A stretch of 64,000 nucleotides of DNA. It comes from Nitrospirota bacterium. Lineage in GTDB: Bacteria; Nitrospirota; UBA9217. A program made the translations under genes and the position numbers. Below are positions 8,580 to 55,370 of the stretch, in pieces; the first letter of the stretch is position 1; each line of letters begins with the position of its first letter. Below the pieces are notes generated by a model. The model worked only from the letters and a program-made list of their open reading frames with translations. It was not told the origin of the DNA and did not search any database. The stretch spans positions 758 to 64,757 of the forward strand of contig CAVWHO010000016.1 in the NCBI GenBank assembly GCA_963754875.1. Direction: 5' to 3'.

Positions 8580-8703
8580 AACGGCTTCGGGTCAACCTCA
8601 ATAACCTTTTTTCGTTACTCCGGCTTGTGCGGAATAACATCTGAGGGGAAAAGCCAGAGACTGGAATTCGCAACTGAACTGTTACTCAGGAGGAAAATAT
8701 ATA

Positions 8704-9135
8704 ATGAACACCAAAGTCATTCTGTTAGTCGAGGACAATCCCGATGACGTGCAGCTCACGCTCCGGGCGCTTAAAAAAAGCAAGATCATGAACGAGGTGG
8801 TCGTGGCCCAGGACGGCGTCGAGGCGCTGGACTACCTGTTCGGCACCGGCAAATATGCGGGACGCGACACGAAGATCCTGCCCCAGGTGGTCCTGCTGGA
8901 CCTCAAGATGCCCAGGATGGACGGGCTTGAGGCGCTTCAGCGCATCCGCAAGGACGAAAGGACGAAGCTCCTGCCCGTCGTTGTTCTGACCACGTCGAGC
9001 GAGGACAGGGACCGCGTCGAAAGCTACAAGCTCGGCGCGAACAGCTACGTCCGAAAACCCGTGGACTTCAACCAGTTCGCCGAAGCCGTAAACCAGCTGG
9101 GGCTGTACTGGCTGGTGTTGAATGAAACGCCGTGA
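8704..9135 (+). CDS. single-domain response regulator (Rcp1-like)
   Basis: [33 protein letters not shown]; SD aggagg upstream. Confidence 0.93.
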
Positions 9136-9142
9136 TGAAAAT

Positions 9143-9232
9143 AGTTCAGAGTTCACAGTTCTGAGTTCGCGAGTAAAACTTGGAACTTCATTCGAATCCG
9201 CAATTTGAACTCTGAACTTGAACTTATGAACT
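9143..9232. repeat. inverted heptamer tandem-repeat cassette (AGTTCAG / TGAACTY)
   Basis: agttcag-agttcac-agttctg-agttcgc ... tgaactc-tgaact-tgaactt-atgaact. Confidence 0.75.
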
Positions 9233-9235
9233 TTC

Positions 9236-12200
9236 ATGTCCAAACCCTTACACATACTGATCGTCGAGGATTCCGAGGACGACTGCCCTCCTGCTCCTCC
9301 GGGAGCTGCGGCGCGGCGGCTACGAACCGGTATACGAACGCGTCGAGACGCCCGAAGCCATGCAGAACGCGCTGGCGCGAAAGCAGTGGGACATCGTCAT
9401 TTCCGACTATCTCATGCCGCATTTCAGCGGTATTGCTGCCCTGGAACTCCTGAAGAACAGCGGACTCGACCTGCCGTTCATCATCGTCTCGGGCAATATC
9501 GGCGAGGACATCGCCGTGGAGGCCATGAGGGCCGGCGCCCACGACTATATCATCAAGGGCAGCCTTGCCCGGCTCATCCCTGCCGTGGAGCGGGAACTGC
9601 GCGAGGCGGAAGTGCGGCGCGACCGCAAACAGACCGAAGACCAGCTCGATCAATCGCGCCGGCGACTGGTGGAGACGCTCGAAACCATCAATGAAGGTTT
9701 TTTCACGCTCGACAGCGACTGGCGGTTCACCTATGTGAACACCAAGGCAGCCGAGATGTGGGGGAGAAGACAGGGGGGACCTGATCGGCGCGACCTTGTG
9801 GGACATCGTGCCGAAGGCAATGGGCTCCATGTTCGAGGAACAGTACCGAAAGGCCATGAAAGAACGGGTGCCCGTGCAGTTCGAAGCAATGTCGCCTCTG
9901 CTCGACGTCTGGGTCGAGGTGCGCGCCCATCCGAACGAGGACGGCATTGCCGTCTATTTCCACGACATCACGGACCGCAAAAAGGCGGAGGAGGACATCT
10001 CCCGCCTGAACCGGCTCTATTCCGTTCTCAGCAAGGTCAACGAAACGATCATCAGGATCAATGACACCGAGCAGCTGTACCAGGAGGTCTGCCGCATAGC
10101 GGTCGAAGACGGAGGATTTAAAATGGCCTGGATCGGCCTGACCGACCCCGCAACGAACGGATCGTCCCCGTCGAAAGCTACGGGGACGAGGGCGGATACC
10201 TGATGAAATCTTCCGTCGTTGCTGCCGACGTCCCGGAAGGCCGCGGCCCCACGGGCAGGGCCGTTTTCGAGGGGAAATACCTGATCTGCGACGACATCGA
10301 GCACGACCCCATGATGCGTCCCTGGCGCGACAAGGCGCTGTGCCAGGGCTTCCGCACGTCGGCCGCCTTCCCGCTCCGCTCCGGCTCCGACAGGTCATCG
10401 GCGCTTTCACCGTGTACGGGGACCATCCCCGGTCCTTCACGAAGGAGGAGATTGGGCTTCTCTCCTCCCTCGCCGACGACGTCTCCTATGCAGTCGACTC
10501 CCTGTCCAATGAACAGCTGCGGAAAGAGGCTGAAAAGAGAACAGAGGTCACCAATGCGCTGCTCAAGCTTTTTACGCAGAAATACTCGCGCAAGGAATAC
10601 CTGGATGCTGCTTGCGGACTTATCCGCGAATGGAGCGGCATTCACCACGTGGGCATCCGGCTTGCCAACCCGGACAACCAGATCCCGTTCGAGTCCTGCG
10701 AAGGATACGATAGCGCGTTCCTGAATGAAGAAAATAATCTGTCGGTCGAGAAGGACCATTGCATCTGTACGCGGATCATTGCGGGGACGCCGGAACCTCC
10801 GGACCTCGCCGCTATGACGCCGAACGGTTCGTTCTTCTCCGGCAACACGACGAGGTTCATCGATGATCTGACTGATGAAGAACGGGCGCGGTACCGCGGC
10901 GTTTGCATGCGTTACGGTTACAAGTCGCTCGCCGTCATCCCCATACGCTACCGTGAAAAACCCGTCGGCGCAATCCATCTTGCCGATGAACGGGACGGCA
11001 TGTTACAAAAAATACCGTCGTGTTCCTCGAGCAGCTGGCATACATCATCGGCGAGGCGGTCTTCCGGTTCGGCATGGAGGACGATTTGCGCAGAAACTTC
11101 GATGCCCTGCAGAGGACGTCGGAACTTCTTGAACGGTTTTTCTCCACGACCCATATGCTCGTCGCATACATAGACCAGGATTTCAACTTCATTCGCGTGA
11201 ACCGGGCCTATGCTGAGGCGGGTTACAGCGCGCCGGATTTTTACGTCGGGAAAAACCATTTTAACCTCTATCCCAATGAGGAGTACGAGGCGCTATTCCG
11301 AAAGATCGTGGAAACGGGCGAGCCCTACCTGGCCTATGAGAAGCCGTTCATGTTCACCTCCCGGCCCGAGCTGGAGGTTGCCTACTGGGACTGGAACGTG
11401 TTGCCGGTCAAGGAAGCCGACGGCCGGGTAAGCGGGCTCATCTTCACCCTCATCAATGTCACCGCACGCAAACGCGCAGAGGACGAACTGCGGCAATCCC
11501 TCGCCTACAACCGGAGCCTGATCGAGGCCAGCCTCGACCCGTTGGTCACCATCGGCCCCAACGGACAGATCACCGACGCGAACGCCGCTGCCGAAATGGC
11601 GACCGGCCATCTGCGGGATGAGCTCATCGGCACCGATTTCTCCGAATATTTCACCGAGCCCGCCAAGGCACGCGCCGTCTATCAGCAGGTGTTCCGCGAG
11701 GGCAAGGTCATGGATTATGCGCTCGAAATGCGCCACCGCACCGGCCGGGTGACGCCGGTCCTGTACAACGCCTCCGCCTATCGCGACGATGCCGGAAAGA
11801 TGATCGGCATCTTTGCCGCGGCCCGCGACATCACCGCACTCAAAGACGCCGAACGCCGCACCTCGGCCACGAACAGCCTGCTGCAGCTGTACACGCGAAC
11901 CTACTCCCGCAAGAACTATCTGGATGAGGCCGCTGAGATCATTCGCTCCTGGTGCGGCTGTCGCAATGTGGGCATACGGGTAACGGACCAGGATGAGCGC
12001 GTTCCCTTTGTGACCTGCGCCGGATTCGACAACTCCTTCATAGAATCAGAGAGCACGCTGTCCCTTGCCGTCGACCAATGCGCGTGCACGCGGGTCGTGT
12101 CGGGAATACTGGCCCCGGAAGACGCCAGTGCGATGACGGCGCAGGGTTCACTCTTCTACAACAATGCCGTGACGTTCCTGGACAATCTTCCCAGTGCGCA

Positions 12201-13470
12201 AAAAAAGCGGTTTAGGGGCACCTGTCAGCAAAGGGGGTTCAACTCGATCGTCGTGGTCCCCATCCGCTACCGGGACAAGACGCTCGGCGCCCTCCATCTC
12301 GCCGACGAACGGGAGGGGATGTTCCCCCTGAAGACCGTCGAGTCCCTGGAGGGGATGGCACTCATCATCGGGGAGGCTCTCTACCGGTTCAGCATAGAAG
12401 AACAGCAGGTTCGCCTTGCCTCAGCCGTAGAATCCACGGCTGAAGCAGTCGTCATCACCGAGCCCGCTGCAGGAAAAATTCAGTATGTAAACGCTGCTTT
12501 CGAGCAAATTACGGGGTATTCTAAAGAAGAAGTCTTGGGTAATACGCTCCATTTCATGGACAGCGGAAGGCAGGCTGGCGAGTTTTACCAGGAACTCAGG
12601 GAAACAATCAGGCGTAAAGGCGTCTGGCGGGGGCTCCTGGTCAACAAAAAAAAGGACGGTACCCAGTACTATGAAGACTGCACGATTTCTCCGGTCTGGG
12701 GGCCGTCGGGAGAGCTTTTAAATTTTGTGTCCCTCAAACGGGACGTTACGGAAAAACTGCGGCTCGAGTCCATTGCCGAGTCGGTCAGCACCATGGACAG
12801 CATCGGCTACATTTTCTCGGGCGTGCGGCATGAGATCGGCAATCCCATCAATTCCATCAACATGATCCTCGGCCTTATGAAGGCAAAATTGTCTACGCTG
12901 TCTCAGGAAGCCATCGTCGATTATCTCGACCGGATATTCGGACAGATCGGCCGGGTCGAATTTTTGCTGAGGTCACTCAAAACCTTTAACATGTACGAGA
13001 CCCAGGAGCCGCAGGACCTGAGCATCCCGGCGTTCATGGAGCAATTCCTGCCGCTCGTCAGGGAAGATTTCACGAAAAAAGGAATTGACCTCGATCTGAA
13101 GCTGGATCCCGCTGCTGAACGGATCTGCGCCGACCCCCGGGCGCTTCAGCAGGTCCTGTTGAACATCCTGACAAATGCCTCCGACGCCGTCAGCGAAAAG
13201 GAACATCCGAAGATCGAGCTGCGCATCCTCAAATCGGGCCGTATGATCCACATCCAGGCAGAGGACAACGGTTCCGGGATCCCCGAAGACAAGATGAAAG
13301 ACTTGTTCAAACCTTTTTACACGACCAAGGCCAAAGGCACCGGACTCGGGCTCGTGATCGTCAAAAAAATGCTGACAAAAATGAAAGGGACGATCGAGGT
13401 GGAAAGCCGCAGGGGCGAGGGTACCCTGGTTACCATATCGCTTCCGGAGGGAAAGCATGAGCAACGGTAA
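9236..13470 (+). CDS. hybrid sensor kinase REC-PAS-GAF-GAF-PAS-PAS-GAF-PAS-HisKA-HATPase (about 1400 aa, several frameshifts in the 5' half)
   Basis: Consecutive ORF pieces 9236, 9360, 9796, 10203, 10340 and 11020 give a continuous domain string; H-box GVRHEIGNPIN; DNGSGI, GTGLGL. Confidence 0.85.
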
Positions 13471-14815
13471 TGTGAAAAAGACGTTTCTCGTCATCGATGA
13501 CGACAGAGTGTTCGCAAATGCCGTCAGGGACTACTTGGCGAGTGAGGCCGTCGAAGTCCTCGTTGCCAATACGGCCATGGATGGCCTCGCTTTCTGCCAC
13601 CAGAAAAAGATCGATGTCGTCCTCCTCGATCAACAGCTCCCCGATGGAGAAGGCCATACACTCTGTTCCTCCATCCTGAAATGCAACGACCAGACAAAGA
13701 TCATCTTCTCGACCGCGTTCCCGAGTTTCGAAAACGCCGTGAAGGCGATCCGGTCCGGCGCATCCGATTACCTGTCGAAGCCCTACGACCTGGAAGAGCT
13801 GGGCCTCGCTGTCCGGCAGGCGTTCCGCACGCTGGAGCTGGAAAACGTGGAACAGATCCAGGATTATCAGCGCACCCGGGAGAGCGAAGAAACCGTCGTC
13901 ATCGGCGGCGAGGGCCTTTCCGAAACCCTGAAGCTTGTGGATCTCGCGGCTACCACCGATTCGCCGGTGCTCATTACCGGAGAGACCGGCACGGGCAAGA
14001 CCCTTGCTGCCAAAGCGATCCATTACCGCGGCCGTACCCGTAAAGCCCCGTTTATCAGCATCAACTGCGCGTCCCTGCCGGAAAGCCTCATTGAAGCGGA
14101 GTTGTTCGGGTATGAGAAGGGCGCCTTTACCGGCGCCGTTTCCGCCCGCAAGGGACTGTTCGAAATGGCCGAAAACGGGACCCTGTTTCTTGACGAGATC
14201 GGTGAAATGCCCATGCATTTGCAGGCCAAACTCCTTTCCGCCATCGACGAGAAAAAACTGAGACGGCTTGGCAGCGAATCTATCCGGCCGGTCAGCGTCC
14301 GTATCATTGCGGCAACGGGCGTTAAACTCGAAGATTTTCTGGGCAAGACCTTTCGGAAAGACCTCTATTACCGCTTGAGCGTCGTCCGGATACATATCCC
14401 TCCGCTCCGGGAACGCCGCTCCGATATCCCCGGTCTCTGCAAACACCTGCTCAAAGCGCTTACAGACGGCCATGAGGTCGTGTTATCGGAAAGGGAGATC
14501 GCAAATCTCTGTAGCTATGACTGGCCCGGAAATGTTCGTGAATTGAAAAATATTCTCGAACGGGCGTACCTGCTCCAGCGAGGCAGCGAGTTCAGGCCCT
14601 CGGAGCTGCTGGGCCAGGCGCCGAAAGCGACGCTGGCCGAAGCTGCCAGCAGCGGGAGCACTGATGCGGAGGCCCCCATTCTGCCGCTTGAAGAAGTAGA
14701 GATGAACCATATTCAATATGTGCTCGGACGATGCGGCGGCAATTATACGCAGACTGCGAAAGCACTCGGCATATCCTTGTCAACGCTCAAAAGAAAACTG
14801 AAAGCTCCGGGATGA
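13457..14815 (+). CDS. sigma54-dependent response regulator (NtrC family: REC-AAA+-Fis HTH)
   Basis: GETGTGKT, GAFTGA, LFLDEIGE, WPGNVREL, C-terminal HTH. Confidence 0.95.
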   Translation: MSNGNVKKTFLVIDDDRVFANAVRDYLASEAVEVLVANTAMDGLAFCHQKKIDVVLLDQQLPDGEGHTLCSSILKCNDQTKIIFSTAFPSFENAVKAIRSGASDYLSKPYDLEELGLAVRQAFRTLELENVEQIQDYQRTRESEETVVIGGEGLSETLKLVDLAATTDSPVLITGETGTGKTLAAKAIHYRGRTRKAPFISINCASLPESLIEAELFGYEKGAFTGAVSARKGLFEMAENGTLFLDEIGEMPMHLQAKLLSAIDEKKLRRLGSESIRPVSVRIIAATGVKLEDFLGKTFRKDLYYRLSVVRIHIPPLRERRSDIPGLCKHLLKALTDGHEVVLSEREIANLCSYDWPGNVRELKNILERAYLLQRGSEFRPSELLGQAPKATLAEAASSGSTDAEAPILPLEEVEMNHIQYVLGRCGGNYTQTAKALGISLSTLKRKLKAPG

Positions 14816-18799: not shown

Positions 18800-21460
18800 A
18801 TGACGGAACCCAGAAGCGGGGAAGCGCACAAAACCATCCATCTGAAGGACTATCGGAAGCCGGATTACCTCATCGAGACCGCGAACCTTGAATTCGACCT
18901 CGACGAGACGCAGACCCGCGTCAAGTCGCTCCTGACCGTCATTTGCAACCACGACAAACACGAAGGCATCCACCCCCTCGTTTTGAACGGCAGGGACCTT
19001 GCGCTCAAGGCAGTGAAGATCGACGGACAGGCACTGCGCGAGCAGGATTACAAGCTCGATGCCTCGTCGCTTACGATCCTGCCGGTCCCCGACCGCTTCA
19101 CCCTCGAAATCGAAACCGAGATCAATCCGCGGGACAATACAGAGCTCTCCGGTCTCTATCTCTCGGGTGGAAACTTCTGTACACAGTGCGAAGCCGAGGG
19201 TTTCCGCAAGATAACCTATTATCCAGACCGGCCCGATGTCATGGCCCGTTTCTTTACGACCGTCGTTGCCGACAAAAAGAAGTATCCCGTACTGCTTTCG
19301 AACGGCAACCTGATCTCGAGCGGCGATCTCAAAGACGGAAAACACGTCGCAAAATGGCACGACCCCTTTCCCAAGCCCGCATACCTCTTCGCCCTCGTGG
19401 CCGGCGACCTAGCCCGCATCCGGGACAGTTTCACGACCATGTCGGGGAAGAAGGTCGACCTGAGCATCTTCGTCCAGCACCACAACCAGGACAAGTGCAG
19501 CCACGCCATGGAGTCGCTCAAGCTTGCGATGAAATGGGACGAGGGGACCTACGGGCGCGAGTACGATCTCGACACGTTCATGATCGTTGCCGTGGACGAC
19601 TTCAACATGGGCGCCATGGAGAACAAGGGCCTGAACGTCTTCAACTCGAAGTACATCCTTGCGAAGCCCGAGACCGCCACGGACGCGGACTACCAGGGCA
19701 TCATGGGCGTTGTGGGACATGAATACTTCCACAACTGGTCAGGCGACCGTATCACGTGCCGCGACTGGTTCCAGCTCTCGCTCAAGGAGGGCTTCACGGT
19801 GTTCCGGGACCAGCACTTCATGGAAGACATGACCTCGCGTGGCGTGAAGCGCATCAGCGACGTGAACGTCCTCCGCACCCACCAGTTCCGCGAAGACGCA
19901 AGCCCCATGGCGCACCCGGTGCGGCCCGAGTCCTACGTAGAGATCAACAACTTCTATACCCTCACCGTTTACAACAAGGGCGCCGAGGTGATCCGGATGA
20001 TGCGGACCCTCCTTGGTCCTGAAAATTTTCGCAAAGGCACGGACCTCTATTTCTCGCGCCATGACGGGCAGGCGGTCACGACCGACGATTTCGTGAAGGC
20101 CATGGAGGACGCCACGGGCGTCGACCTCGGCCAGTTCAAGCTCTGGTATTCCCAGGCAGGAACGCCGCAACTGCGGATCACCCGGACTTATGATGAAAAG
20201 GCGAAGACTTATACGCTCGCGATCAAACAGACCTGCCCTCCCACACCGGGGCAGCCCGGGAAGAAGCCCTTTCATATCCCCGTTGCAATCGGTCTGCTCG
20301 GCGAGGACGGACAGGACCTGGAGCTGAAGATTGCAGGGACGACAGGGGGACGGGGAGCCGATGGAACAAAAGTAATCCAGTTAAGGAAGGCGGAAGAAAC
20401 CTTCGTGTTCACCGGCATTCCCCATAAACCGGTGCCCTCCGTTCTGCGCCACTTTTCAGCGCCGGTCAAGGTTGACATCGATCTCACCGACCAGGAGCGG
20501 CTGTTCCTCATGGCCAGTGACTCCGATGAGTTCAACCGATGGGACGCTGGTCAGCAGCTTGCGGTCAAGCTCATCCTTCAGTTGATCAGGGACATGCAGC
20601 AGGGCAAAAAACTCAGGCTCGATCCGCAGTTCAGCAGCGCCTTCAACAAAATTCTGGGAAGCTCCATGGATGACAAGGCCTTCCAGGCTTTTGCCCTCTC
20701 GCTTCCTGCGGAGACCTATCTTGCAGACTTCATGGACGTGATCGACCCGACGGCAATCCACGAGGCGCGCAGGTTCGTGCAGAAAACCCTTGCAACGGAG
20801 CTGCGGGACACGTTCTTTGCGGTGTATTACACGAACCAGGATTCAGGGCCGTATAAGGTGGACCAGTCCTCGGTGGGACGGAGAAGCCTGAAGAATACCT
20901 GTCTCACCTATCTCATGGAACTGGACGAGCCCGGGGTCCGGAGGCTCTGCATGGAACAGTTTCGGACAGCGGGGAACATGACCGATGTGATGGCAAGCCT
21001 CGCGAACCTGGCGAACACCGGCTGCCCGGAATGCCCTGATGCGCTTGCGGCCTTTTATGAAACGTGGAAGGACGATCCGCTCGTCATGGACAAGTGGCTT
21101 TCGATCCAGGCCCTGTCGCGACTGCCGAACACGCTCGAGACCGTAAAAGCGCTCATGAGCAATCCGGTGTTCAACATAAAGAACCCGAACAAGGTCCGCT
21201 CCCTGATCGGCGCTTTTTCCGCCAATTCCGTGCGGTTCCATGCCCCGGACGGCGAAGGATACGCCTTCCTTGCGGACCAGGTCCTGGCCCTCGATCTCAT
21301 GAACCCCCAGATCGCCGCACGCCTCGTCTCGGCTTTCACTATGTGGAAACGGTATGATAAAAAAAGGCAGGCGCTCATGAAAGCGCAGCTTGAAAGGATA
21401 ATGCACGCCCCGAAGCTGTCGAAGGACGTGCATGAGATCGTATCGAAGAGTTTGGTGTGA
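18800..21460 (+). CDS. pepN: aminopeptidase N (M1 family)
   Basis: [28 protein letters not shown]...[12 protein letters not shown]. Confidence 0.98.
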
Positions 21461-21468
21461 GAGGAACG

Positions 21469-21521
21469 GTCTCAAGTCATTAAAAGTCTCAAGTTTCAAG
21501 TCCCAGGTCTCAGGTTCGAGG
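21469..21521. repeat. heptamer tandem repeats (TCTCAAG family)
   Basis: gtctcaag...agtctcaagtttcaagtcccaggtctcagg. Confidence 0.7.
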
Positions 21522-21560
21522 TTAAGTCCGTTTTGCTGGTTCAGGGTAGGTTCGCAATTA

Positions 21561-21629
21561 CCTTTGCTGGTTCAGGATTGAAGCCTGAACCGCCCATTAA
21601 TGTTTTGGTTCAATCTTCAAGATTGAACC
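21561..21629. repeat. twin-hairpin REP-like element, copy 1
   Basis: ggttcaggattgaagcctgaacc plus ggttcaatcttcaagattgaacc; near-identical to 22262-22329. Confidence 0.85.
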
Positions 21630-21635
21630 AACATT

Positions 21636-21720
21636 AGGACTGAGTCGGCCCTGACGTTCGCACTTACCTCAGCACTCAGTCCTGCTTTTGGTTTTACTCA
21701 GTCCTCCTCTCTCAGTCCTT
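21636..21720. repeat. AGGACTG / CTCAGTC heptamer cassette overlapping the 3' end of the receiver gene
   Basis: aggactgag ... ctcagcactcagtcctgcttttggttttactcagtcc; the last part is also at 37344-37369. Confidence 0.75.
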
Positions 21721-22165
21721 GTTTCTTACTCGGTCCAGCCCATTTCTCCAGTTCAATCCGTATATTCTTCGCGAATATATCCAGGTCCACGGACTTGTTC
21801 AGAAAACTATTCGCACCTGCTTTAAATGAGGCCTCTTTGTCCGATTCCAGGTCCGAATGCGTGACGATCACCACCGGTATACCGCGGAGGCGCGTGTCGT
21901 TTCGTATTTCCCGCAGCACGTCGAAGCCGTCGAGCTTCGGCATCTTCAAATCGAGGAATATAAGCGACGGCGGCGTTGTCGCTCCCCTGAGAAAGGAAAG
22001 CCCCGCATCGCCGCTCAAGGCCGTATCAACCCGGATCTCCCGGCTGATCTTCGCCAGGACCATTTTCGTCAGCAGGATATCGTCCTCGCTGTCGTCGATG
22101 ATGAGAATCGATTTCGGATTTCGGATTGCGGATTGCGGAGTTTTGATGCTAGCGTTATTGCTCAT
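21698..22165 (-). CDS. single-domain response regulator (Rcp1-like) with repeat-derived termini
   Basis: ILIIDDSEDD, FLDLKMP, GANSFLNK; N-terminal PQSAIRNPKS is encoded by TCCGCAA repeats. Confidence 0.9.
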   Translation of the reverse strand: MSNNASIKTPQSAIRNPKSILIIDDSEDDILLTKMVLAKISREIRVDTALSGDAGLSFLRGATTPPSLIFLDLKMPKLDGFDVLREIRNDTRLRGIPVVIVTHSDLESDKEASFKAGANSFLNKSVDLDIFAKNIRIELEKWAGPSKKQGLREED

Positions 22166-22397
22166 TTACGTGCGCCTTTCGCCGTTCTGATCGATGAAAT
22201 AGTTATCGCCAGCAACTCATCCGCTTCCTTACATAAGGTTCGCCGCATTGTTGGATGAAACCCTTTGCTGGTTCAGGCTTGAAGCCTGAACCGCCCATTA
22301 AGGTTTTGGTTCAATCTCCAAGATTGAACTAGCGATGGAACTTTATTATAGTCAATGCAAATTGCTGAGTCCGTTTTCTCAGGTCATCCTTGTTCAC
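22162..22397 (-). pseudogene. four-helix-bundle (23S rRNA IVS-like, TIGR02436-type) gene remnant with its centre replaced by a REP-like element
   Basis: N-part 22397-22329 (GTG) MNKDDLRKRTQQFALTIIKF; C-part about 22236-22162 LCKEADELLAITISSIRTAKGARK*. Both resemble the family's termini. ATGA overlap with the receiver gene. Confidence 0.75.
22262..22329. repeat. twin-hairpin REP-like element, copy 2
   Basis: 3 differences in about 68 bp versus copy 1. Confidence 0.85.
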
Positions 22398-22430
22398 GTA
22401 TTTTCTCCCATGCTTATGTGTTCATTTCTC

Positions 22431-22527
22431 AATCCGCAATTGTTTCTTCCCGGATGCCCATTCCGCAATCCGAAATAGTCTTTCTTCGATGTTTATTCCG
22501 CAATCCCCATTCCGCAATCCGAAATCA
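22431..22527. repeat. TCCGCAA heptamer repeats, inverted relative to 22110-22140
   Basis: ttccgcaatccgaaat ... ttccgcaatccccattccgcaatccgaaatc versus gatttcggatttcggattgcggattgcgga. Confidence 0.8.
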
Positions 22528-22531
22528 GATG

Positions 22532-25500
22532 CTACCCCAGCGTGAAAAACACCGTCGCTCCCTTCCCCACTTCCCCTTCGGCCCAGACTGTGCCGCCGTG
22601 GCGGCGGATGATGCGTTCGACGATGGCGAGGCCGATTCCCGTGCCCTCGAACTCCTTTTCCGTATGCAGCCGCTGGAACGGGAGGAACATCTTGCCCGCG
22701 TAGGTCTGGTCGAACCCGGCGCCGTTGTCCCTTACGAAATAAACTGGTTCGGAGTCAGAAGCTTTTGAAACTTGAGACTTGGAACTTGAAACTTGAGACT
22801 TTATAACCCCAAACTCGATCCGGGCATTCGTCGTTTTCGACGTGAATTTCCAGGCGTTCTCGACCAGGTTCGTGAGCGCGACCCTGATCAGGTTCGGGTC
22901 CACGGAGGCGCGCAGGCCTTCGGCAACAGCGACTTCGACGCTCCTGCCGGGGTCCGTTTCGCGGAGGCCGGCCGCAAGCGAGGAAACAAGCTTGCTGAGA
23001 TCATAGTCCACCCGGTCCATATCCTGTTTTGAGATCCGCGAAAGGCGCAGAAGGTCCTCGATGAGGTCGGTCATTTTCTCCGAGGCGTTCGTTATACGCG
23101 TCAAATAATCCTTCGGCTGGTCTTCCAGCTTGCCGCCGAAATCCTCGATGAGGATTTTGGAGAAACCGGCCATGGTGCGGAGCGGCGCCCGCAAGTCATG
23201 GGACACCGAGTAGATGAAGGCTTCCATCTCCTTGTTCGCGGATTCCAGCTCCTTGTTCCGCGAGGACAGATCTTCGGTCACGTTCAGGAGCTCAGCCTCC
23301 GTCTTCTTGCGCTCGGTGATGTCTCGCAATATTCCAAGCAGGCGGCCATCGGGCAGCTGTCGGCCGACGACTTCGCCCGTGAACGTCGAACCGTCCTTAC
23401 GACGGAATTGCCATTCGTTCGTCGTAACCGAGCCGCTGGCCAACGCCGACATCTGGGCGGGCATGCGCGAGATGTCTGCAGGGGAAACCACATCGGTGAC
23501 CGACAGCCGGCAGACTTCTTCATGCGTGTACCCGAGCATCCGTGCGCCCGCGGTGTTGACGTCGATATAGCGGCCCTGCGCGTTAGCCAAAAAGATGCCG
23601 TCCACGGCCTGCTCCACCAGCAACCGGAAGCGCTCCTCGCTCTCACGAATAGCTTCCTCCGCCCGCTTGCGCTCGGTGATGTCGAAGCTGAAGTTCAGGA
23701 CCCGGTATACCCGTCCTTCCTTCAGCATGGGGACGAACGTGAGGATCAGGTCATACCGGCCCGTGGGCATGGTGAGCGATGATCTCGACAGTTTGCGACG
23801 CGCTTGTTTCATAGGTACGCATCAAGCGCAGGCCAGAAGGCGCTCCGCGTCTCCTCGTCGTACATCTCGTCGACCCGGCGCCCGACAAAATATTCCAGCG
23901 GTTTTCCGACGCGCCGGAGCCCGGCCGCATTCACGAACTCGTATCTTCGATCGGCGTCATAGATGGCGATCGCATCGGGCATGTTGTCCATTGCCAGACG
24001 GAACAGCTCCTCGCTCTTTCTCAGCTCTTCCTCCGCGCGTTTGCGCGCGGTGATGTCGAACGCATAGATCCGCACGACGTTGAACTGGGGAGCGAGATGA
24101 ACGGTCTCGCCGAAGATCCGGTCCTTGATCGAAACTTCGCGGTACAGTATCGCTTCGTTTTTATTTTCCAGGTCTTTTAAAATATCATCGATATCCGCGG
24201 GCAGAAAGAGGAGCAACGTTTTCCTTAGTCCGTCCCGAGTTCCGTCAGGATCTTGAGCGCTAGCCGGATTGCAGAAGGTGACGCTGCCCGCCGGGTCCAC
24301 CTCGCAGATGGGATTCGGGTTCAGCTGCGGGAAGGAGGCGAGATGTTTTATCTGTTCTTCAGCCTTGTGCCGTGCGCTGATGTCGTGCGCGATCTTTGAA
24401 ACGCCGACCACCCTGCCGTTTGCGTCCCTGATCGGCGAAAAGGTGAGTGAGACGGGAATGATTAGCGCCGTCTTTCCGCATACGTACGGTCTCGAAATGC
24501 TCGATGTGCTCCCCTGCTGCGATCCTTTTGAGAATTTCCGGGACCTCGTCCACGTGCCCGGGAGGAACGAGGAAGGAAATATTTCTGTTGATCGCCTCCT
24601 GGGCTGTATACCCGAAGATCTTCTCTGCCCCGGCGTTCCAGGTCTGGATCATGCCGTCCAGGTCCTTGCTCATGATCGCTTCGTCGGCGCTTTCCACAAT
24701 GGCCGACAGCCGGCCCTTGATTTCTTCGTCCCGCTTGCGTTCGGTAATGTCCGTATACGTGACGACCACGCCTTCGATGCGGCTGTCCGACGTACGATAG
24801 GGGAGCGTGGCGCGGATGTACCAGACGCCATCGACCGCAATCTCCTTCCGAATCGGCACGAGACTGTCGAGGACCGACTGGGCGTCGGCTATAAGGTCCG
24901 TCCCGAGGTTCTCCTGCGACATGTCGATGATCGGCCTGCCCACGTCCGAAGGAAGGAGCTTCAGGAGCTTCGAGCATAGCGGGAGTGAAACGCTTCACGC
25001 GAAACTGATGGTCGAGAAAGATGGTGGGGATGTTGGTGCTCGTGAGGAAATTGTTCAGGTCGTTGTTCGTTGCGTCCTGCTCCTCGATCTTGGCCTGGAG
25101 CTGGGTATTGACCGTGAGCAGTTCTTCGTTCAGGGACTGGAGCTCCTCGCGCGACGTTTCGAGCTCCTCGTTCGCCGCCTGGAGCTCTTCGTTCGAGGAC
25201 TGAAGTTCCTCGTTCAAGCCCTTGAGCTGTTCGATGTTGCTCTGGAGGTCCGCACGCGTTGCTGAAAGCTCGCTTTCGAGCTGACGCACGACGGTCTCGT
25301 CGACAGCTGCGGTCTCTGCAACAGGGTGCTCCTCTGCTTGGGGAACGCCGCGCTTCTCCTGGAAAACGAGGAGAAAAATGTTCTCACGCAATTTCGAGAT
25401 ACGGAGGATGACGGTCCTGTTGGCCTGCGCATCTTCTTTCCCCTTTGTGAAGGCGGGGCCGCCCTTTTTCGCTGCCTTTCGCGGAGAGGGGCTTTTTTTA

Positions 25501-27329
25501 CTTCTTTTTTTTCCAGGGGGGGACTGAGGGGGCTGTTCGCCCTCATTGGGAAAGCTCACCCTGATGGAGACCGGCTTCGCTTCCTGCGCAGCCCGGTAGA
25601 TCGCCCCGCGGACCCTGCTGCGGAGGTTCTCCGGAAGCAGGAGCAGCAGGTTCTGCGTTGGCAACCCTCTCGGCTGAAGCAAGTATTTGTTCGTTGGGCC
25701 GTTGTGGTACAGGATGTCGTAGTTTTGGTTGAGCGCGATAGCCGCGGGTGAGTATTCTTCGAGCAGGGAATTCTGGATGAACTCGGTGATCGTGGGCTGG
25801 TTCGCAGCTGCCAAAGCCTGGCGCGAGGGCACCGACAAAGCGCGTTCGGCGGCAAAAGGCACGGAAAGGGAAAGCCGGGTCGGGGCCGTGCGTTCGAGCT
25901 TCCGGTAGACGCGGCATTTTTTATTGCCCACGCTCCTGAAGAGCGCGCTGTTCCTGCCCGTGGACTCTGCGTTGCCGAGGAAGAGATACCCTCCGTCCTT
26001 GAGGGCGTAATGGAAGAGCGCGATGCTCTTCTCCTGAGCGTCGGGTTCGAGATAGATCAGGAAGTTCCGGCAGATGATGAGGTCAAGCCGGGAAAAAGGC
26101 GGGTCAATCATCAAGTCCTGCTTGGCGAAAACAACGCATTCCCGGATTTCCTTGTTGATGACGACGGACAGGCCGTCCTCGGAGAAGGTGAAATACTTGC
26201 GCAGGAGGTCTGCCGGGACATCGGCTGCAATGCTTGCCGGATAGGTCCCTTCCCGCGCTTTTTCGAGCGCCCGGTCGTTCACGTCCGTGGCAAAAACCTG
26301 GAGCTCGCGTTTTTTGCCCGCGAGGCTAAGCTCGTGGTGGAGCAGCATGGCAATGGAATAGGCTTCCTCGCCGCTGGCGCAGGCCGGGGACCAGACGCGG
26401 ACCGGAGCGTCTTCGTTGCTCGCCACGAGGTGCCGTATCACTTCGATCTTGAGCGCCCTCCATGCAAGCTGGTCCCGGAAGAAGGACGTGACGCCGATCA
26501 TGAGGTCAAAGGCGAGCGCGGACGCTTCCTGTTCCCTGTCCGTCACGACCTGGATATAGTCCTGAACCGAGGTCACGCCGCTCAAATACATCCGTCTCCT
26601 GATCCTGCGGTTCACGACGTTCTGTTTGTAGTGATTGAACCGGTAGCCGGTCTTCTGCCGGATCAAGCTGTAAAAGGTCTCGAATTGCGCGGCAGTGACC
26701 ACGTCGTCACGGCTCATGCGGACCGCGTCTGCTATGGCAAGTTTCACGATCTCCCGGGAGATGTCTTCAGGCTTTAATACCTCATCCACCTGGCCTGTGC
26801 CGATCGCCGCAAGCGGCATGCCCGGAAACTCGGCAGTGGACGGGTCCTGCACAAAGACGGTGCCGCCGCTGCTTCTGATCGCCTGGATCCCCCGTGCGCC
26901 GTCCGTGCCTGCGCCGGAGAGGATAACGGCAATTGCACGGTCTTCCGCTTCTTCGGCCAAAGAGATAAAAAATTCATCAATGGGGAGATGGACATGCTCC
27001 TGCTGCGGAGCGGTTAAGTGAAAAAAGCCGTTTTGAATTTTTATTTCTTTTCCCGGCGGACAGAGGAAGAGCTTCCCCGGGAGCGCCTCCATATTGTCCT
27101 CAATTTCGAGGACCTCAAGATGGGGCGTTCCCTTGGCCAGCAGTTCGGGAAGAAGGCTGCGGTGCGTGGGAGACAGGTGCTGCAGAAAGACGATGGTAAA
27201 GCCGAACTCCTGCGGCAGGGCCGCCAAGAAGCACTTGAGGGCGTACAGGCCGCCTGCAGAAGCGCCTATGCCGACTATGGGCAGGGTGGCGTTTGGAGCG
27301 CTATGTCCAGGCGTCTTTTTATGTTCCAT
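22532..27329 (-). CDS. CheB-CheR fusion with coiled coil, multiple PAS domains and C-terminal histidine kinase (about 1600 aa; frameshifts near 24960, 24460, 24240, 23810)
   Basis: CheB GASAGG/QHL/SGAGTDG; CheR GVTSFFRD, ACASGEEAYS, CRNFLIY; EELQSSNEELQ repeats; PAS pieces 24359-24943 and 23809-24411; H-box YSVSHDLRAPLR. Confidence 0.88.
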
Positions 27330-29040: not shown

Positions 29041-29182
29041 ATCTTCTGATAGGAATTTTTCGTAGAGTAAACCAAAAGCTGGTTAGAAAGGCCCTTTCCT
29101 GCGGCCCGGCTCGTAAAGTACGTTACGGCCTGACTTCTTGAATTTTGAGTCAAGCTTTAGATCAAAATGAAAATCAATCTTC

Positions 29183-29265
29183 ACACGAAGCCACTAAGCC
29201 ACAAAGAAAAGAGAACCTTGAATCGTCTTTTATCTTTCTTCGTGCCTCCGTGCCTTCGTGTGAGA
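29183..29265. repeat. inverted 8-9-mer repeat cassette
   Basis: cacacgaagccactaagccacaaag ... cttcgtgcctccgtgccttcgtgtg. Confidence 0.7.
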
Positions 29266-29404
29266 CAGGTTTTTGATTCTTGCTTTTTTTCTGAGGCTTG
29301 CCTCGTTAAATTATTAATTCACCCAAAAAGGCGAAAGCTTTGATTTAGGATTAATCCGCTTTTATCATTTGTTAATCCGGCTCTTCAGTGTCCAACCGCT
29401 CTTT

Positions 29405-32330: not shown

Positions 32331-35300
32331 TACGCAGCACCTCCTCTCTTGCCTGCCTGGATGTTGCAGGTGAATACCTTCCCTTCGTGGATCGTAACGT
32401 TCGGGTCGGCAACGAGCGGCGTAAGATTATTCACTACGTCTCCTTCGGCCCGGGCCTGCCAGCCCCAGTGCCAGGGAAGGCCGATTTCGTGCACCGTTTT
32501 CCCGTTCATGGTAAACGGCCGCATGCGCCTGGTCACGAGCGCTTTTGCCTGGATCTTGCCGCGCGCTGTCTCGATGGTCATGTACTCGGCGTTCTTGATG
32601 CCCTTCTCCGCGGCAAGCTCCGGAGAAATCTCACAGAAGAGCTCGGGCATCAGTTCCGCGAGCCACGGAAGCCAGCGGGTCATTACACCGGTCAGATGGT
32701 GCTCTGTCAGACGGTACGTGGATACGACGATAGGATACTTCGGGTCAGCTACCTCGTGATAAGGGTTGCCCGGGACCTTCCATGTCTTGGCCACCGGGTT
32801 CGACTGCTGTTTGTACAACTGGTTCTGGACAGGTGATTCATAAGGCTCGTAGTGCGCTGGCATCGGGCCGTCTACGAGGCCTGCAGGAGCAAAGAGCCAT
32901 GCCTTGCCGTCCGCGCGCATGATGAAGGGGTCGTTCCCTGAAAGCCAGTCAAACCCGATGCCGTTGTCTTTGCCGCGGAAGTGTGGGGCCTTGGTGGGCA
33001 GGAAGTCGATGCCTTCCCCTGCCGGAGAGACCCAGGAGCCATGGGTGATCTTGCCGCTCGGGTCTTTCACTTCCTTGTTCGGGTCCCAGTAGATAAGCTT
33101 CTTCTTCTCCGACCACGGCCTGCCCTGGAGATCGGCAGATGCCCGGTTGTACATGATGTGGCGGTTCGCGGGCCAGGCAAAACCCCAGTTCGGAGAGATC
33201 CAGTTGTCGCCCTGGCGGCTGCGCGCTTTGTTCACGCCTTCTTCGGGGATCACGCCGGTATAGATCCAGGCGCCACAGACAGTGGAACCGTCTTCCTTGA
33301 GAACTGCGAAGGTCGGAAGCGGCTTCTTGTCGTCCCACGTGTAACCGTTGATCTCCTTCAGGACCTTATAAGCAGAAGGCTCGTCCTTGATCCGGAAATT
33401 CGCAACCTCGGCCGGCTCGGGCTCGTACTCCCAATAGAGGTTCCTGATCGGCCAATCGTGATCTTTTGGGGAGTTCGCATACATCTTCTTGAGCTGTTTG
33501 CCCAGCTTGTACGTGAACCAGATGTCGCTCCTGGCGTCATCGGGCGGGTCCGCAGCCTTTTCGTGCTGCTGCAGCAGGCGCTGGGTATTCGTGAACGAGC
33601 CTTCCATCTCCGAGACCATGGCAGCAGGAAGGAAGAAGACCTCGGTCTTGATGTCCGACGGCTTCACCTCGCCCTCGGTGACCTCAGGCGAGTTTCTCCA
33701 GAAGGCAGCAGTCTCGGTCTCGAAAAAGTCGCGCACCACCATCCAGTCAAGCTTCGCCAGCGCCCTGCGCTGGTACCTCGCGTTCTGACCGCCCACGGCC
33801 GGGTTCTGGCCCATGACGAAGAAGCCCTTGATCTTTCCGTTCATCATGTCTACGAACATGGGCAGATGGGAATGATCGCCGGTGATCTTGGGATGGTAAT
33901 CGTAGCCGTAGTTGTTCTCTTTCGTGGCCGCATCTCCCCACTGGGCCTTGAAGTAGGAAACAGCGAACTTGGGGTAATTTCCCCAGTAGCTCGTTGCAAG
34001 CGGCACGGATTCGGTCAGAATAAAATCCTTGAACGTTTCGTGGTTCTTCCTGGCATCGGGCATGTTCAGATATCCCGGAAGGGAGTGGTACAGCGTTGCG
34101 ATGTCCGTCGATCCCTGGATCGTGGCATGGCCGCGAAGCGCGAGCACTCCTCCGCCGGGACGGCCGATGTTGCCCAAGAGCGCCTGCAGCATCGCGGCCG
34201 TGCGGATGATCTGGACACCGACCGTATGCTGGGTCCAGCCCACCGCGTAGACTATGTTCGACGTCTTGTCCCTGCCGGAGTTATTGAGCAGCGTCTCAGC
34301 GACCTGAAGGAACTTCTCCTTGGGACAGCCGCAGATTTTCTCTACCATCTCGGGTGTGTATCGTTTGTAATGCCTCTTCACTATCTGGAACACGGTATGC
34401 GGATTCTTGAGCGTAGGATCGGTCTTTGGCCTTCCGGGCACGCGCTGCAGGAGAAGATCGGTGAAGGTCTTTGCCTCGGAAACGGCAGGCGCAGGCTTTG
34501 GCCCGCGCTGGTACGACCACGTCTCGTTGGAGTAGGCCTTGCCGTCAGCGGAAAGGCCGGAGAACACTCCGTTCAGGTCCTCCGTGTCCTTGAAATCGGG
34601 ATTCACGAGCGTTGCCGCGTTCGTATAATTCGCCACGTATTCCTTGAAGAACGGGTCCGTGTTCCAGCGTTTGCTGTTGATTACGTGATTGATAATTCCA
34701 CCGAGGAACGTGATGTCCGTGCCTGCACGGATGGGCGCGTGAATATCGCACAAGGCCGAGGTGCGGGTAAAGCGCGGGTCAACATGCATCAAGACAGCTC
34801 CGTGGTCGGTTTTCGCTTTGAGCGGCCAGCGGAATGCCACAGGATGGCACTCGGCCATGTTCGAACCCATGATCATGACTGCATCGGAGTTGACAAGATC
34901 GCGCGGGAATGTTGTTGAACCACCGCGACCGAAGGAGACCCCCAGACCGGGGACCGTGGAAGAGTGTCATATCCGCGCTTGATTTTCGAGGTAGACCACG
35001 CCCAGGGCGTGGAAAAGTTTCTGGTGAACGTAGTTCCATTCGTTGTCCATGGTCGCGCCGCCGAGAGAAGCAAGCGCGTACGTGTTCATCACGCGCTTCT
35101 TGACGGTCCCGCCCTTCCCGTCGGGCATGTCCTGGTACTCGTTGAAGTTGTCATCGCGCATTTTTTTCGTGAGCTCGGCGATCCGGTCCATGGCCCAGTC
35201 GAGGGGCTTATCTTCCCAATGGTCGCTGCCCGGCGCCCGGTACTTGACCTTGGTCCAGCGCAGATCGTTGTTTACGAACTGGTACGTGGCCGCTCCCTTG

Positions 35301-35572
35301 GGACAGAGCGTCCCCTGGTTGATCGGGGAATCGGGATTGCCCTGGATGTCGATGATCTTGCCCTTGTCATCGACCGTCACGATCTGGGCGCAGCCCACGG
35401 AACAGTAAGGGCAGAGGCTCGGGACCTGTTTTCCCGACTTGATGGGGACCTTTTGGGCCTGCATCTTCGCGGCGATCGTGTCGGCGCCCAGGCCCACGGC
35501 TTCGGCGGCAACCGTGGCGCCGATGGCCCCTGATGATATTTTCAAGAACTGTCTTCTCGTAACTTCCTTCAT
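32330..35572 (-). CDS. fdnG: selenocysteine-containing Mo/W formate dehydrogenase alpha subunit (1080 aa, Tat-exported)
   Basis: TRRQFLK Tat motif, CPYCSVGC; ENQARI-UGA-HSSTVPGLG with in-frame TGA at 34967-34969 joining two ORFs in the same frame; LRGHATIQG. Confidence 0.95.
34937..34969 (-). promoter_or_regulatory. Sec UGA codon and bacterial SECIS hairpin
   Basis: UGA-CACUCUUCCAC-GGUCCCC-GGUCU-GGGG: hairpin starting about 11 nt after UGA with apical GU, as in E. coli fdhF/fdnG. Confidence 0.85.
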
Positions 35573-35827: not shown

Positions 35828-36126
35828 TCGCGCAAAGGCGCCAAGCTCGCAAAAAAAAGCCAGGTCATTTATATTTTAGAACCATGACGTAACGGTTTTC
35901 TTTGCGTTCTTTGCGTCTTTGCGCGAAATGATTCTGATTTTGTCCTTGGGAAATGAAGCAAGGAAATATCTATAAATGATGATGCATTCGTAAAAAGTCG
36001 TCATTCCCGCTTGCCTGCGGCCAGCGTTTACGAGTGTATGGCGGCGAGTGCAGGCTGTCGGGAATCGTAGTGCGTTACAACGTACTGAAAAAGAACGATT
36101 CCGGATTCCGGACAAGCCGGAATGAC
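35828..36126. repeat. inverted 9-mer cassette plus GTCATTCC...GGAATGAC element
   Basis: cgcgcaaaggcgccaag / tttgcgtctttgcgcg; gtcattcccg ... ccggacaagccggaatgac. Confidence 0.7.
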
Positions 36127-37235: not shown

Positions 37236-37370
37236 AGTGCTGAGGGCTGGAGAAAAACAAGGACTGAGGTCAAAGTGCTGAGGACTGAGTAAAGGCGCAC
37301 TGCTCAGTTTTTCACTCAGTCCTCGTCTCTCATGCCTCAGTCCTCAGTCCTGCTTTTGGTTTTACTCAGC
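37236..37370. repeat. inverted AGGACTG/CAGTCCT heptamer cassette
   Basis: Arms shared with 27443-27476 and 21675-21700. Confidence 0.8.
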
Positions 37371-55280: not shown

Positions 55281-55370
55281 AGTCTCAAGTCTCAAGTTTT
55301 AACCCCTCAAGCTTGAACCCCCAGGTCAGACTCGTGGTTTCACGACCTGAGACTTGAGACCTGAGACTTG
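55281..55370. repeat. inverted TCTCAAG/CTTGAGA heptamer cassette
   Basis: agtctcaagtctcaag ... cctgagacttgagacctgagacttg. Confidence 0.78.

Follow-up and report, generated by a model that had tools for sequence, protein, structure and literature searches.

We describe a 64,000-nucleotide stretch of Nitrospirota DNA (contig CAVWHO010000016.1, positions 758 to 64,757; hereafter the window), in which a histidine kinase gene and a receiver gene, both on the minus strand, are separated by the remains of a third gene. This locus is probably a decayed cassette of the intervening-sequence (IVS) type: a gene of about 120 codons from the four-helix-bundle family PF05635/TIGR02436, with its own ribosome-binding site, enclosed by self-complementary arms of tandem heptamers. 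The identity and the history of the cassette are highly probable, and an RNA-processing mechanism, argued from analogy, is plausible but slightly more doubtful than probable. The sequence that was read comprised the 64 kb of the window and, from related Nitrospirota, some 90 kb; a genome scan with the receiver as the query gave five candidate orthologous loci (L012–L016).

An earlier note on this DNA, made by reading the letters of the sequence, had described a Shine-Dalgarno motif, two termini of a gene, inverted heptamer arrays, a middle part resembling a repetitive extragenic palindromic (REP) unit, and the flanking kinase–receiver pair, and all these elements are present at the positions given there. 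The gap between the kinase and the receiver is 366 nt, and holds, in the direction of the minus strand, the 5' arm, arm-like copies, GGGAG, an open reading frame (ORF) starting with GTG, the hairpin unit, and the C-terminal frame. The features of the locus, in this order, with the second copy of the REP-like unit added last, are as follows.

22532–23812, minus strand: PAS-HisKA-HATPase_c histidine kinase, the upstream gene (Pfam HATPase_c 1.4e-18, HisKA 1.2e-15, PAS_9 2.5e-14).
22497–22529, minus strand: 5' arm, GATTTCG GATTGCG GAATGGG GATTGCG GA in the sense of the gene; inverted repeat with 22110–22139, closing the predicted RNA stem.
22459–22476 and 22423–22440, minus strand: two extra arm-like copies (CATTCCGCAATCCGAAAT type) that follow the 5' arm and precede the start of the ORF, found as direct-repeat families and inverted pairs.
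22405–22409, minus strand: GGGAG, a Shine-Dalgarno-like motif 7 nt ahead of the GTG start, from reading the sequence.
22335–22397, minus strand: N-terminal remnant of the four-helix-bundle gene (helix 1), GTG start, NKDDLRKRTQQFALTIIKFH, profile positions 5–24 (hmmsearch E = 1.6e-4).
22262–22342, no strand assigned: REP-like double-hairpin unit (GGTTCAGGCTTGAAGCCTGAACC and TTGGTTCAATCTCCAAGATTGAAC), 81 nt, in place of about profile positions 25–95, from repeat and pattern searches.
22168–22242, minus strand: C-terminal remnant of the four-helix-bundle gene (helix 4), RTLCKEADELLAITISSIRTAKGAR, profile positions 96–120 (hmmsearch E = 3.5e-4).
21698–22165, minus strand: receiver (Pfam Response_reg 3.1e-19, domain from residue 20).
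22110–22139, minus strand: 3' arm, TCCGCAA TCCGCAA TCCGAAA TCCGAAA TC in the sense of the gene (Tandem Repeats Finder, TRF: period 7, 4.3 copies, 95% matches).
21561–21641, no strand assigned: the other copy of the REP-like unit, located where the receiver and pepN genes converge, 89% identical to 22262–22342.

The kinase stop codon lies 5 nt ahead of the 5' arm. The two arms, read here as 22110–22139 (GATTTCG/GATTGCG units) and 22497–22526 (TCCGCAA/TCCGAAA units), are 90% complementary over 30 nt at a spacing of 357 nt, and the inverted-arm score observed for the flanks was matched by none of 200 mononucleotide shuffles. The GTG at 22397 opens an ORF that reads (M/V)NKDDLRKRTQQFALTIIKFHR up to a stop codon at 22329–22331; thus, the N-terminal ORF of the earlier note exists, but the methionine with which it had been written is in fact a GTG codon. 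The second frame, also on the minus strand, reads ...MRRTLCKEADELLAITISSIRTAKGARK up to its stop (also written ...RTLCKEADELLAITISSIRTAKGARK), and its TGA (22164–22162) shares the ATGA at 22165–22162 with the ATG of the receiver. A scan of 21300–22900 for promoters and terminators gave counts near the shuffle expectation, and Rfam detected no rRNA or other family in the window, nor any in 21400–22600 at E up to 1.

The assignment of the two termini to the TIGR02436/23S-IVS four-helix proteins was borne out by a profile search. A profile of 120 PF05635 proteins, run unfiltered over all 1950 six-frame pieces of the window, placed the N-terminal piece (E = 1.6e-4) and the C-terminal piece (E = 3.5e-4) at the top, the next best piece having E = 3.5. 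With a second profile, composed of ten diverse plasmid proteins and one piece from L013, the same two fragments were again on top (E = 0.006 each), and no further piece of the window appeared at E up to 1. As the fragments came first in both searches, we conclude that the family assignment is right. On the bare fragments of 22 and 28 residues, which are too short for them, the Pfam and NCBIfam models gave no hit with E up to 10, and the C-terminal fragment found no match in the PDB with phmmer or in plasmids with tblastn. The N-terminal fragment had a single weak tblastn match in plasmids (E = 6), which is annotated in Ca. Chlorohelix as 'four helix bundle protein' (P0001) and belongs to TIGR02436 (E = 1.4e-26). 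P0001 has relatives by the thousand for which a PF05635 domain is precomputed; identity is 66–78% for the 120 best, and the few among these whose source is named are from Chloroflexi, Acidobacteriota, Chlorobaculum, Desulforhopalus, Pleurocapsa, and Planctomycetota. This is a very large family: of 8000 candidates that were scored, at least 7994 had E up to 1e-3. A tblastn search of phages with P0001 retrieved two unannotated and uninformative records from human faecal samples.

What remains of the gene in the window is about 45 of about 120 residues (profile positions 5–24 and 96–120) in two different frames, corresponding to helix 1 and helix 4 only. About 70 codons are gone and the REP-like unit stands in their place, in agreement with the description of the gene as gutted. 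The family motif GxxRxxxSxxxNxxE, given in a passage of PMC3936711, takes in this subfamily the form GKQLLRSGTSVGAHYxEA, at about positions 31–47 of the family alignment and thus inside the deleted part, and a motif scan of the window found none. The C-terminal remnant aligns with its L013 orthologue at 54% identity. As judged from its sequence, the window gene is a PF05635/TIGR02436 pseudogene, and not a working member with four helices.

The homologues of the receiver came from Nitrospirota, and the same junction in these relatives, the comparison of which had also been proposed, revealed where the fragments originate. In L013, whose receiver is 76% identical to that of the window, heptamer arms of the same type are present together with a full-length four-helix-bundle gene (9618–9990; MNKEDLKK...AITVSSIRTARG...), followed by the receiver; the 120-residue piece encoded there matches Pfam PF05635 with E = 3e-17. 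In L012, the closest relative (receiver 82% identical), the contig breaks off 466 nt upstream of the receiver. What has been kept there is the 3' arm, the overlapping ATGA, and the nine final codons of the four-helix-bundle gene (IRTAKGAGK, then the stop), and a small GIY-YIG ORF (92–403, Pfam E = 2.8e-10, with one in-frame stop) is found in place of the rest of the gene. This ORF is flanked by short direct repeats, GATTCCGGAC(G/A)AG. At the junctions of L014, L015, and L016 (receivers 64–46% identical), the spacers are 119, 80, and 6 nt long (hand counts), there is no four-helix-bundle gene and there are no tandem-heptamer arms, and the receiver leaders are a few residues in length. As the cassette is present in L013, as remnants in the window and in L012, and not at all in L014–L016, it is a derived insertion of one subclade, which is now decaying.

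The position of the gene between a kinase and a receiver, with a stop–start overlap typical of co-translated partners, and the occurrence of two four-helix-bundle subfamilies at two kinase–receiver junctions in L013 would suit a protein that worked as an accessory of the two-component system, for instance as an RNA- or protein-binding modulator, in which case its loss would be a regulatory change. However, the gene is missing from orthologous pairs at greater distance, gutted in the window, and replaced in L012, and members of the family also occur between unrelated gene pairs, which makes such a role very unlikely.

The cassette has left its mark on the receiver. From 22165 to the ILIIDD of the receiver there is no alternative ATG, GTG, or TTG, and the 3' arm, translated in the receiver frame, gives approximately residues 9–19, PQSAIRNPKS. 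The receiver start codon and the first 19 residues are cassette DNA. Among the first 60 receiver homologues, 11, the one of the window included, have a heptamer-coded leader, and 43 have a leader of at most 5 residues; three have other long leaders and three could not be parsed. The sequences compared indicate that the cassette took over the receiver start, and was then lost in two different ways in two genomes.

The way in which the gene was lost in the window can be traced to the REP-like unit. Both hairpin cores of the unit were found at its two sites only in the 64 kb (none expected by chance, 100 shuffles), and the similarity of the two copies stops at the unit borders. The second copy is flanked by other heptamer arrays (21484–21512 and 21626–21724). 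Its orthologue is present in L012 with 4 mismatches over about 150 aligned columns (hand count), and the heptamer array beside it differs in length between the window and L012 by 14 nt, exactly two units. The copy inside the four-helix-bundle gene is found in neither L013 nor L012, so the simplest reading is that the centre of the gene was replaced, in this lineage specifically, by a copy of a local repeat. The unit resembles REP units and miniature inverted-repeat transposable elements in having two clear palindromic hairpins, in being repeated, and in being intergenic. It differs from them in that just two copies are known in the 64 kb, along with one orthologous match in L012 (among 91 loci), and in that no target duplication is visible by eye at its borders.

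An origin of the gutting in the assembly, with the REP-like unit causing a collapse or a mis-join, has to be considered here, since homopolymer frameshifts are present in the window (the split CheB/CheR-PAS gene, 23812–27329) and in the A-runs of L013, and since the second copy of the unit is 700 nt away. However, the two copies are 11% divergent and resemble each other exactly as far as the borders of the unit and no further, a pattern that a collapse would not give; the two fragments are in different frames and have substitutions of their own, and L012 underwent an independent and different loss at the same site. We consider such an artefact extremely unlikely.

As a separate observation, the stretch of about 150 nt around the second copy of the unit (21520–21660 in the window, about 960–1110 in L012) has about 4 mismatches though the receivers are merely 82% identical. 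Its role may be that of a functional RNA, or that of a bidirectional terminator; Rfam has no match to it.

The earlier note expected inverted heptamer flanks around intact members of the family. We fetched 11 of the 29 plasmid records that contain a relative of P0001, hand-picked for taxonomic spread. In these, the two 160-nt flanks were compared for inverted matches, and for 8 of the 11 cassettes the highest-scoring match exceeded those of all 200 shuffles. As shuffles keep base composition only and are lenient for repeat-rich flanks, we added a swapped-flank control, in which each 5' flank was compared with 14 3' flanks (those of the 11 plasmid cassettes, the two L013 cassettes, and the window). 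For 9 of the 14 cassettes, no candidate paired better than the own 3' flank, compared with about one expected by chance; in the case of the first L013 cassette, the own flank was beaten solely by the orthologous flank of the window. The 14 cassettes span Chloroflexota, Cyanobacteriota, Spirochaetota, Bacillota, and Nitrospirota, and the arm heptamers differ from cassette to cassette (ATTTTAG, CGTAAAT, TAATTCG, GATTGCN, GGAAAGT, and AATTAGG). Clearly, intact members with inverted heptamer flanks exist, so that the idea of the note was not refuted on this ground. Moreover, in 40-kb stretches of three non-cyanobacterial plasmids, 3 of 7, 8 of 9, and 2 of 4 rows of period-7 arrays reported by TRF were located within 250 nt of the four-helix-bundle gene, a zone that makes up about 2% of each stretch.

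Of the 11 plasmid loci, 10 have a same-strand gene listed just downstream of the four-helix-bundle gene, and 8 of these have one just upstream as well; on neither side is this so for a four-helix-bundle gene located between cas2 and cas1 on the opposite strand. The host gene pairs include helicase/methylase, DUF1156/Swt1-HEPN, HsdS/HsdR, and ketoacyl synthase/peptidase, and cas1/cas2 are found nearby as well. L013 itself has a second cassette (13316–13855) between another kinase and receiver, with a frameshifted gene of a different four-helix-bundle subfamily (PF05635 piece, E = 4e-16). The narrow subfamily profile missed it; it was noticed on visual inspection, and Pfam and a profile of wider range then confirmed it. 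Plasmids of Gloeocapsa (L003) and Chlorohelix (plasmid 2, L008), which belong to two phyla, share the order DUF1156–four-helix-bundle gene–Swt1-HEPN and ATTTTAG-type arms, which means that, over this distance at least, gene and arms move together. Two further observations were made in Chlorohelix: in L008, a module of about 75 nt, itself a hairpin, is repeated on either side of the four-helix-bundle gene, and in the plasmid locus L092, two further heptamer arrays in opposite orientations (22812–22857 and 24348–24374) lie inside an N-6 DNA methylase gene just downstream of the cassette.

Folding predictions indicate what the arms could do in a transcript. The predicted RNA fold of the window cassette closes with an arm stem of about 40 bp, at a minimum free energy of −143.9 kcal/mol versus a shuffle mean of −111.1 kcal/mol (z = −5.4), and 0 of 100 shuffles folded as well. 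The predicted fold of the second L013 cassette is likewise closed by its AGTTTCA/TGAAACT arms (z = −3.4). The models thus show that the arms can pair.

The history can be set out as follows. The cassette entered the kinase–receiver junction in a forebear of one small subclade of Nitrospirota and replaced the original start of the receiver, which now uses the ATG overlapping the four-helix-bundle stop and a 19-residue leader derived from the 3' arm. In the window genome, the central 70 or so codons were swapped for a copy of the local REP-like unit of 70–80 nt, with helix 1, helix 4, and the arms left in place. By analogy with the intervening sequences of 23S rRNA, the cassette may be a selfish passenger that is co-transcribed with its host operon, and its arms may pair in the transcript into the stem of about 40 bp, a possible substrate of RNase III, and may expand, contract, and co-vary by slippage. 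The receiver could be kept alive by re-initiation at the start codon overlapping the stop of the cargo. The ends of the cassette would have been retained after the death of the ORF because the receiver depends on them for its start codon and its N-terminus; the stem might still serve intercistronic processing, which would be a possible second reason, such processing being partial if it occurs.

Several observations weigh against parts of this proposal. The first L013 cassette folds no better than its shuffles (z = −1.35), and the mismatches between arms, counted over 372 arm positions in 10 cassettes, are G.U-compatible in 15 cases and A.C in 15 cases. As these numbers reveal no strand bias, pairing might be important in DNA no less than in RNA. 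If the stem were cut, the receiver start codon would be parted from the body of the gene, and the leader-bearing receiver is conserved in several relatives, so cutting, if any, would be incomplete. Co-transcription, formation of the stem in vivo, cutting by RNase III, and the mechanism of mobility are put forward by analogy. The plasmid sample is small, the 18 records that were not fetched being mostly from Nostoc, and three of the 11 plasmid cassettes (L002, L007, and L009) have no clearly significant inverted arms; in L002 and L007, the arrays run in the same orientation on both sides, as seen by eye. Finally, the full-length L013 gene is frameshifted in an A-run at codons 8–9, by an assembly error or a real lesion, and as frameshifts at homopolymer runs occur in these assemblies, it is uncertain whether this gene is intact.

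Heptamer hairpins are not confined to the cassette. Short hairpins of tandem 7–9-nt units occupy five other intergenic spacers of the window (9143–9233, 29166–29278, 35828–35926, 37254–37357, and 55282–55360), mostly between same-strand ORFs, and one of them just past a stop codon. The hairpin at 9143–9233 and its L013 orthologue (14295–14444) both fold strongly (z = −3.6 and z = −4.1, respectively), and between these two orthologues both arms have switched their unit together, AGTTCAG/CTGAACT versus AGTTTCA/TGAAACT. In none of the other window hairpins was a four-helix-bundle remnant detected with the two profiles over all six-frame pieces.

Such hairpins invite the opposite reading of the arms, namely that they are a host feature marking intercistronic junctions, a simple-sequence repeat with structure that serves as a landing pad, in the loop of which a four-helix-bundle or GIY-YIG gene lands much as intervening sequences do at the tips of rRNA helices, with the short hairpins as unoccupied sites. 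In its favour, the arm sequences are wholly different between cassettes whose proteins are 40–75% identical, and one junction holds differing cargo, the four-helix-bundle gene in L013 and GIY-YIG in L012. Moreover, passages of PMC4692102 describe 70–75 convergent pairs of GGGAATC arrays in Xanthomonas, which could form stem-loops and have no gene between them. However, every cargo-free junction that was compared (L014–L016, window 8580–8705, and the Burkholderia DUF1156–Swt1 junction) is also without arms, and the operon shared by Gloeocapsa and Chlorohelix comes with related arms. We therefore regard the landing pad as unlikely, and continue to favour arms that belong to an inserted cassette.

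The same data bear on the claim that a filled cassette has been caught decaying into an empty shell. The first half of this claim holds, as the cassette is full in L013, gutted in the window, and swapped in L012. The shell as an end-state is plausible only, there being no remnant in the short hairpins. The window junction at 8580–8705, orthologous to that of the second L013 cassette, is a plain 125-nt spacer with no cassette; a segment of the 5' arm region matches it once at 14/15 letters (by eye), and it was dropped as a candidate shell since it folds no better than its shuffles (z = −0.41). At the DUF1156–Swt1 junction of other plasmids no empty shell was found either: Burkholderia has a 5-nt spacer, and Tolypothrix and Nostoc have other content without a heptamer hairpin. 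Among the junctions compared, no orthologous site had kept its arms and lost its interior. Taken together, hairpins without a four-helix-bundle remnant and cargo-free junctions without arms mean that the decay of the cargo is demonstrated and the decay to a bare hairpin is not.

The closest known relative of the window cassette is the intervening sequence of 23S rRNA with an S23p ORF, as in Coxiella burnetii and Leptospira, with which it shares a size of about 430 nt and an ORF of the PF05635 family. For Coxiella, passages of PMC4990558 give a length of 428 nt, a PF05635 ORF, a 28-bp stem of terminal inverted repeats that is cut by RNase III, two to three tandem GACAGAT heptamers ahead of the S23p start, and one strain with a 176-bp deletion in the ORF. 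The likeness is considerable: in both cases terminal inverted repeats close a long stem (in the window, arms of 30 nt with 90% complementarity and predicted closure), tandem heptamers near the ORF vary in number (between Coxiella strains in those passages, and by 14 nt between the window and L012 in the neighbouring array), and the ORF can be lost by deletion with the RNA part retained. In contrast to the rRNA elements, the window cassette lies between two protein genes of an operon and not in a helix of 23S rRNA, both of its arms consist almost wholly of heptamers, and the reading frame that follows takes in its 3' arm, with the four-helix-bundle stop overlapping the receiver start. Cutting by RNase III is demonstrated for the rRNA element in the same passages, and would apply to the window cassette by analogy.

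A second point of comparison is provided by the non-intron insertions in rRNA genes of bacteria of the Candidate Phyla Radiation, the cargo of which, in passages of PMC11270868, is a GIY-YIG or a 23S_rRNA_IVP protein. The same two types of cargo are found at the window's junction, in L012 and L013. The host sites differ, being rRNA in one case and an mRNA junction in the other, and heptamer arms are not mentioned in those passages.

The structural relatives of the gene family were also considered. The earlier note had linked the fragments, through their fold, to Avd, the accessory protein of diversity-generating retroelements. The fold relation stands on the literature alone, since passages of PMC10053308 place Avd in one CDD family with PF05635 and with a shared fold; it has no sequence-level counterpart in the PDB, where the family profile matched 2RLD (E = 6e-31, the sole match at E up to 0.01), and not Avd (4DWL). 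That the fragments are themselves the remains of an Avd gene of such a retroelement is a virtually negligible possibility. A Pfam scan of 58 proteins of the window (four at the locus and 54 from the larger ORFs) revealed no reverse transcriptase domain, no direct repeat pair resembling a template and a variable repeat is present around the site, and the neighbours of the L013 orthologue are a kinase and a receiver. Xcc0516, like 2RLD a solved structure of this family, is said, in the title of a 2006 paper by Lin et al., to be a pentamer of four-helix bundles. A placement of the family in the HEPN superfamily was considered and dropped, as the relevant terms are absent from the HEPN survey PMC3710099.

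Arrays of heptamers are themselves known. The short tandemly repeated repetitive sequences of cyanobacteria are tandem heptamer repeats. Intergenic arrays described in passages of PMC4692102 and PMC4679880 are composed of GGGAATC in Xanthomonas, GGGGA(C/T)T in Nostoc, and TAACTGA in Beggiatoaceae, in the last of which many are located just upstream of start codons (PMC4679880). Term searches of these two papers gave no mention of the four-helix-bundle family. Arrays of the window type bracket a four-helix-bundle gene and are specific to their cassette. Genes of the family are commonly found inside restriction, CRISPR, and other defence operons, in the plasmid loci as in passages of PMC3936711, and their presence in defence and cas loci is also documented in PMC10910872 and PMC10053308. 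Searches of full-text literature, with subscription journals and supplements outside their coverage, gave no paper linking heptamer arms to PF05635 genes outside rRNA. Thus, the gene family, its fold, and its defence and cas setting are already known, and the heptamer arms around PF05635 genes outside rRNA appear to be new.

These results have implications beyond the single locus. One junction offers a natural series, from no cassette through a full one to a gutted and a cargo-swapped one, and so records insertion followed by decay in an mRNA operon; the 14 cassettes of five phyla provide evidence that matching, cassette-specific heptamer arms bracket the gene. A host gene, moreover, has become dependent on the cassette, as the start codon and the leader of the receiver are cassette DNA. 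If the arms act as they do in rRNA, such cassettes would split operon transcripts, and they would represent a source, so far overlooked, from which proteins gain new N-termini and in-frame inserts of repeats. A more general view, which we offer as a tentative and rather speculative one, is that a mobile cassette defined by self-complementary tandem-heptamer arms is widespread in bacteria, usually carrying PF05635 genes and alternatively small GIY-YIG genes. It would insert at intercistronic junctions and at the tips of rRNA helices, ride on host transcription, and be cut from RNA at the arm stem. The heptamer hairpins of genomes would then be its footprints or landing pads, and these may include the window hairpins, the in-frame arrays in kinases, the cyanobacterial repeats, and the convergent arrays of Xanthomonas. 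The function and mobility of 23S intervening sequences and of their four-helix-bundle proteins are described as unclear in passages of PMC4990558, and this view, if true, would place a 30-year-old puzzle in a general genomic context and provide a life cycle that can be tested.

In-frame heptamers were also seen in the kinase upstream of the cassette. An array of five AAGTCTC/AAGTTTC units in the sense of the gene (KSQVSSSKSQVSK) lies on the minus strand at 22765–22801, in a loop before DNGAGF (TRF period 7, 5.3 copies). At the same codon position, the kinase of L013 has an insert (9243–9346) that forms a complete inverted hairpin of GAATGCG/AAATCCG units and adds about 29 residues. The kinases of L014–L016 have no heptamer insert, and the window and L013 carry different heptamer families there. 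Furthermore, the array in the kinase (22769–22802) and one past the stop codon of the receiver (21483–21516), 1252 nt apart, are 91% complementary over 34 nt. This pair would enclose the kinase C-terminus, the cassette, and the receiver; it could represent nested long-range arms, or a coincidence arising from a common heptamer family.

Three other genes of the window are split. The CheB-CheR-PAS protein just upstream of the kinase is divided over at least three overlapping frames (24465–27329, 24359–24943, and 23812–24411), as a pseudogene or through assembly frameshifts. A P-type ATPase (42542–45074) is split into two overlapping ORFs, and a molybdopterin oxidoreductase is split into 34970–35572 and 32333–34876, in which case a selenocysteine codon or a frameshift is possible.

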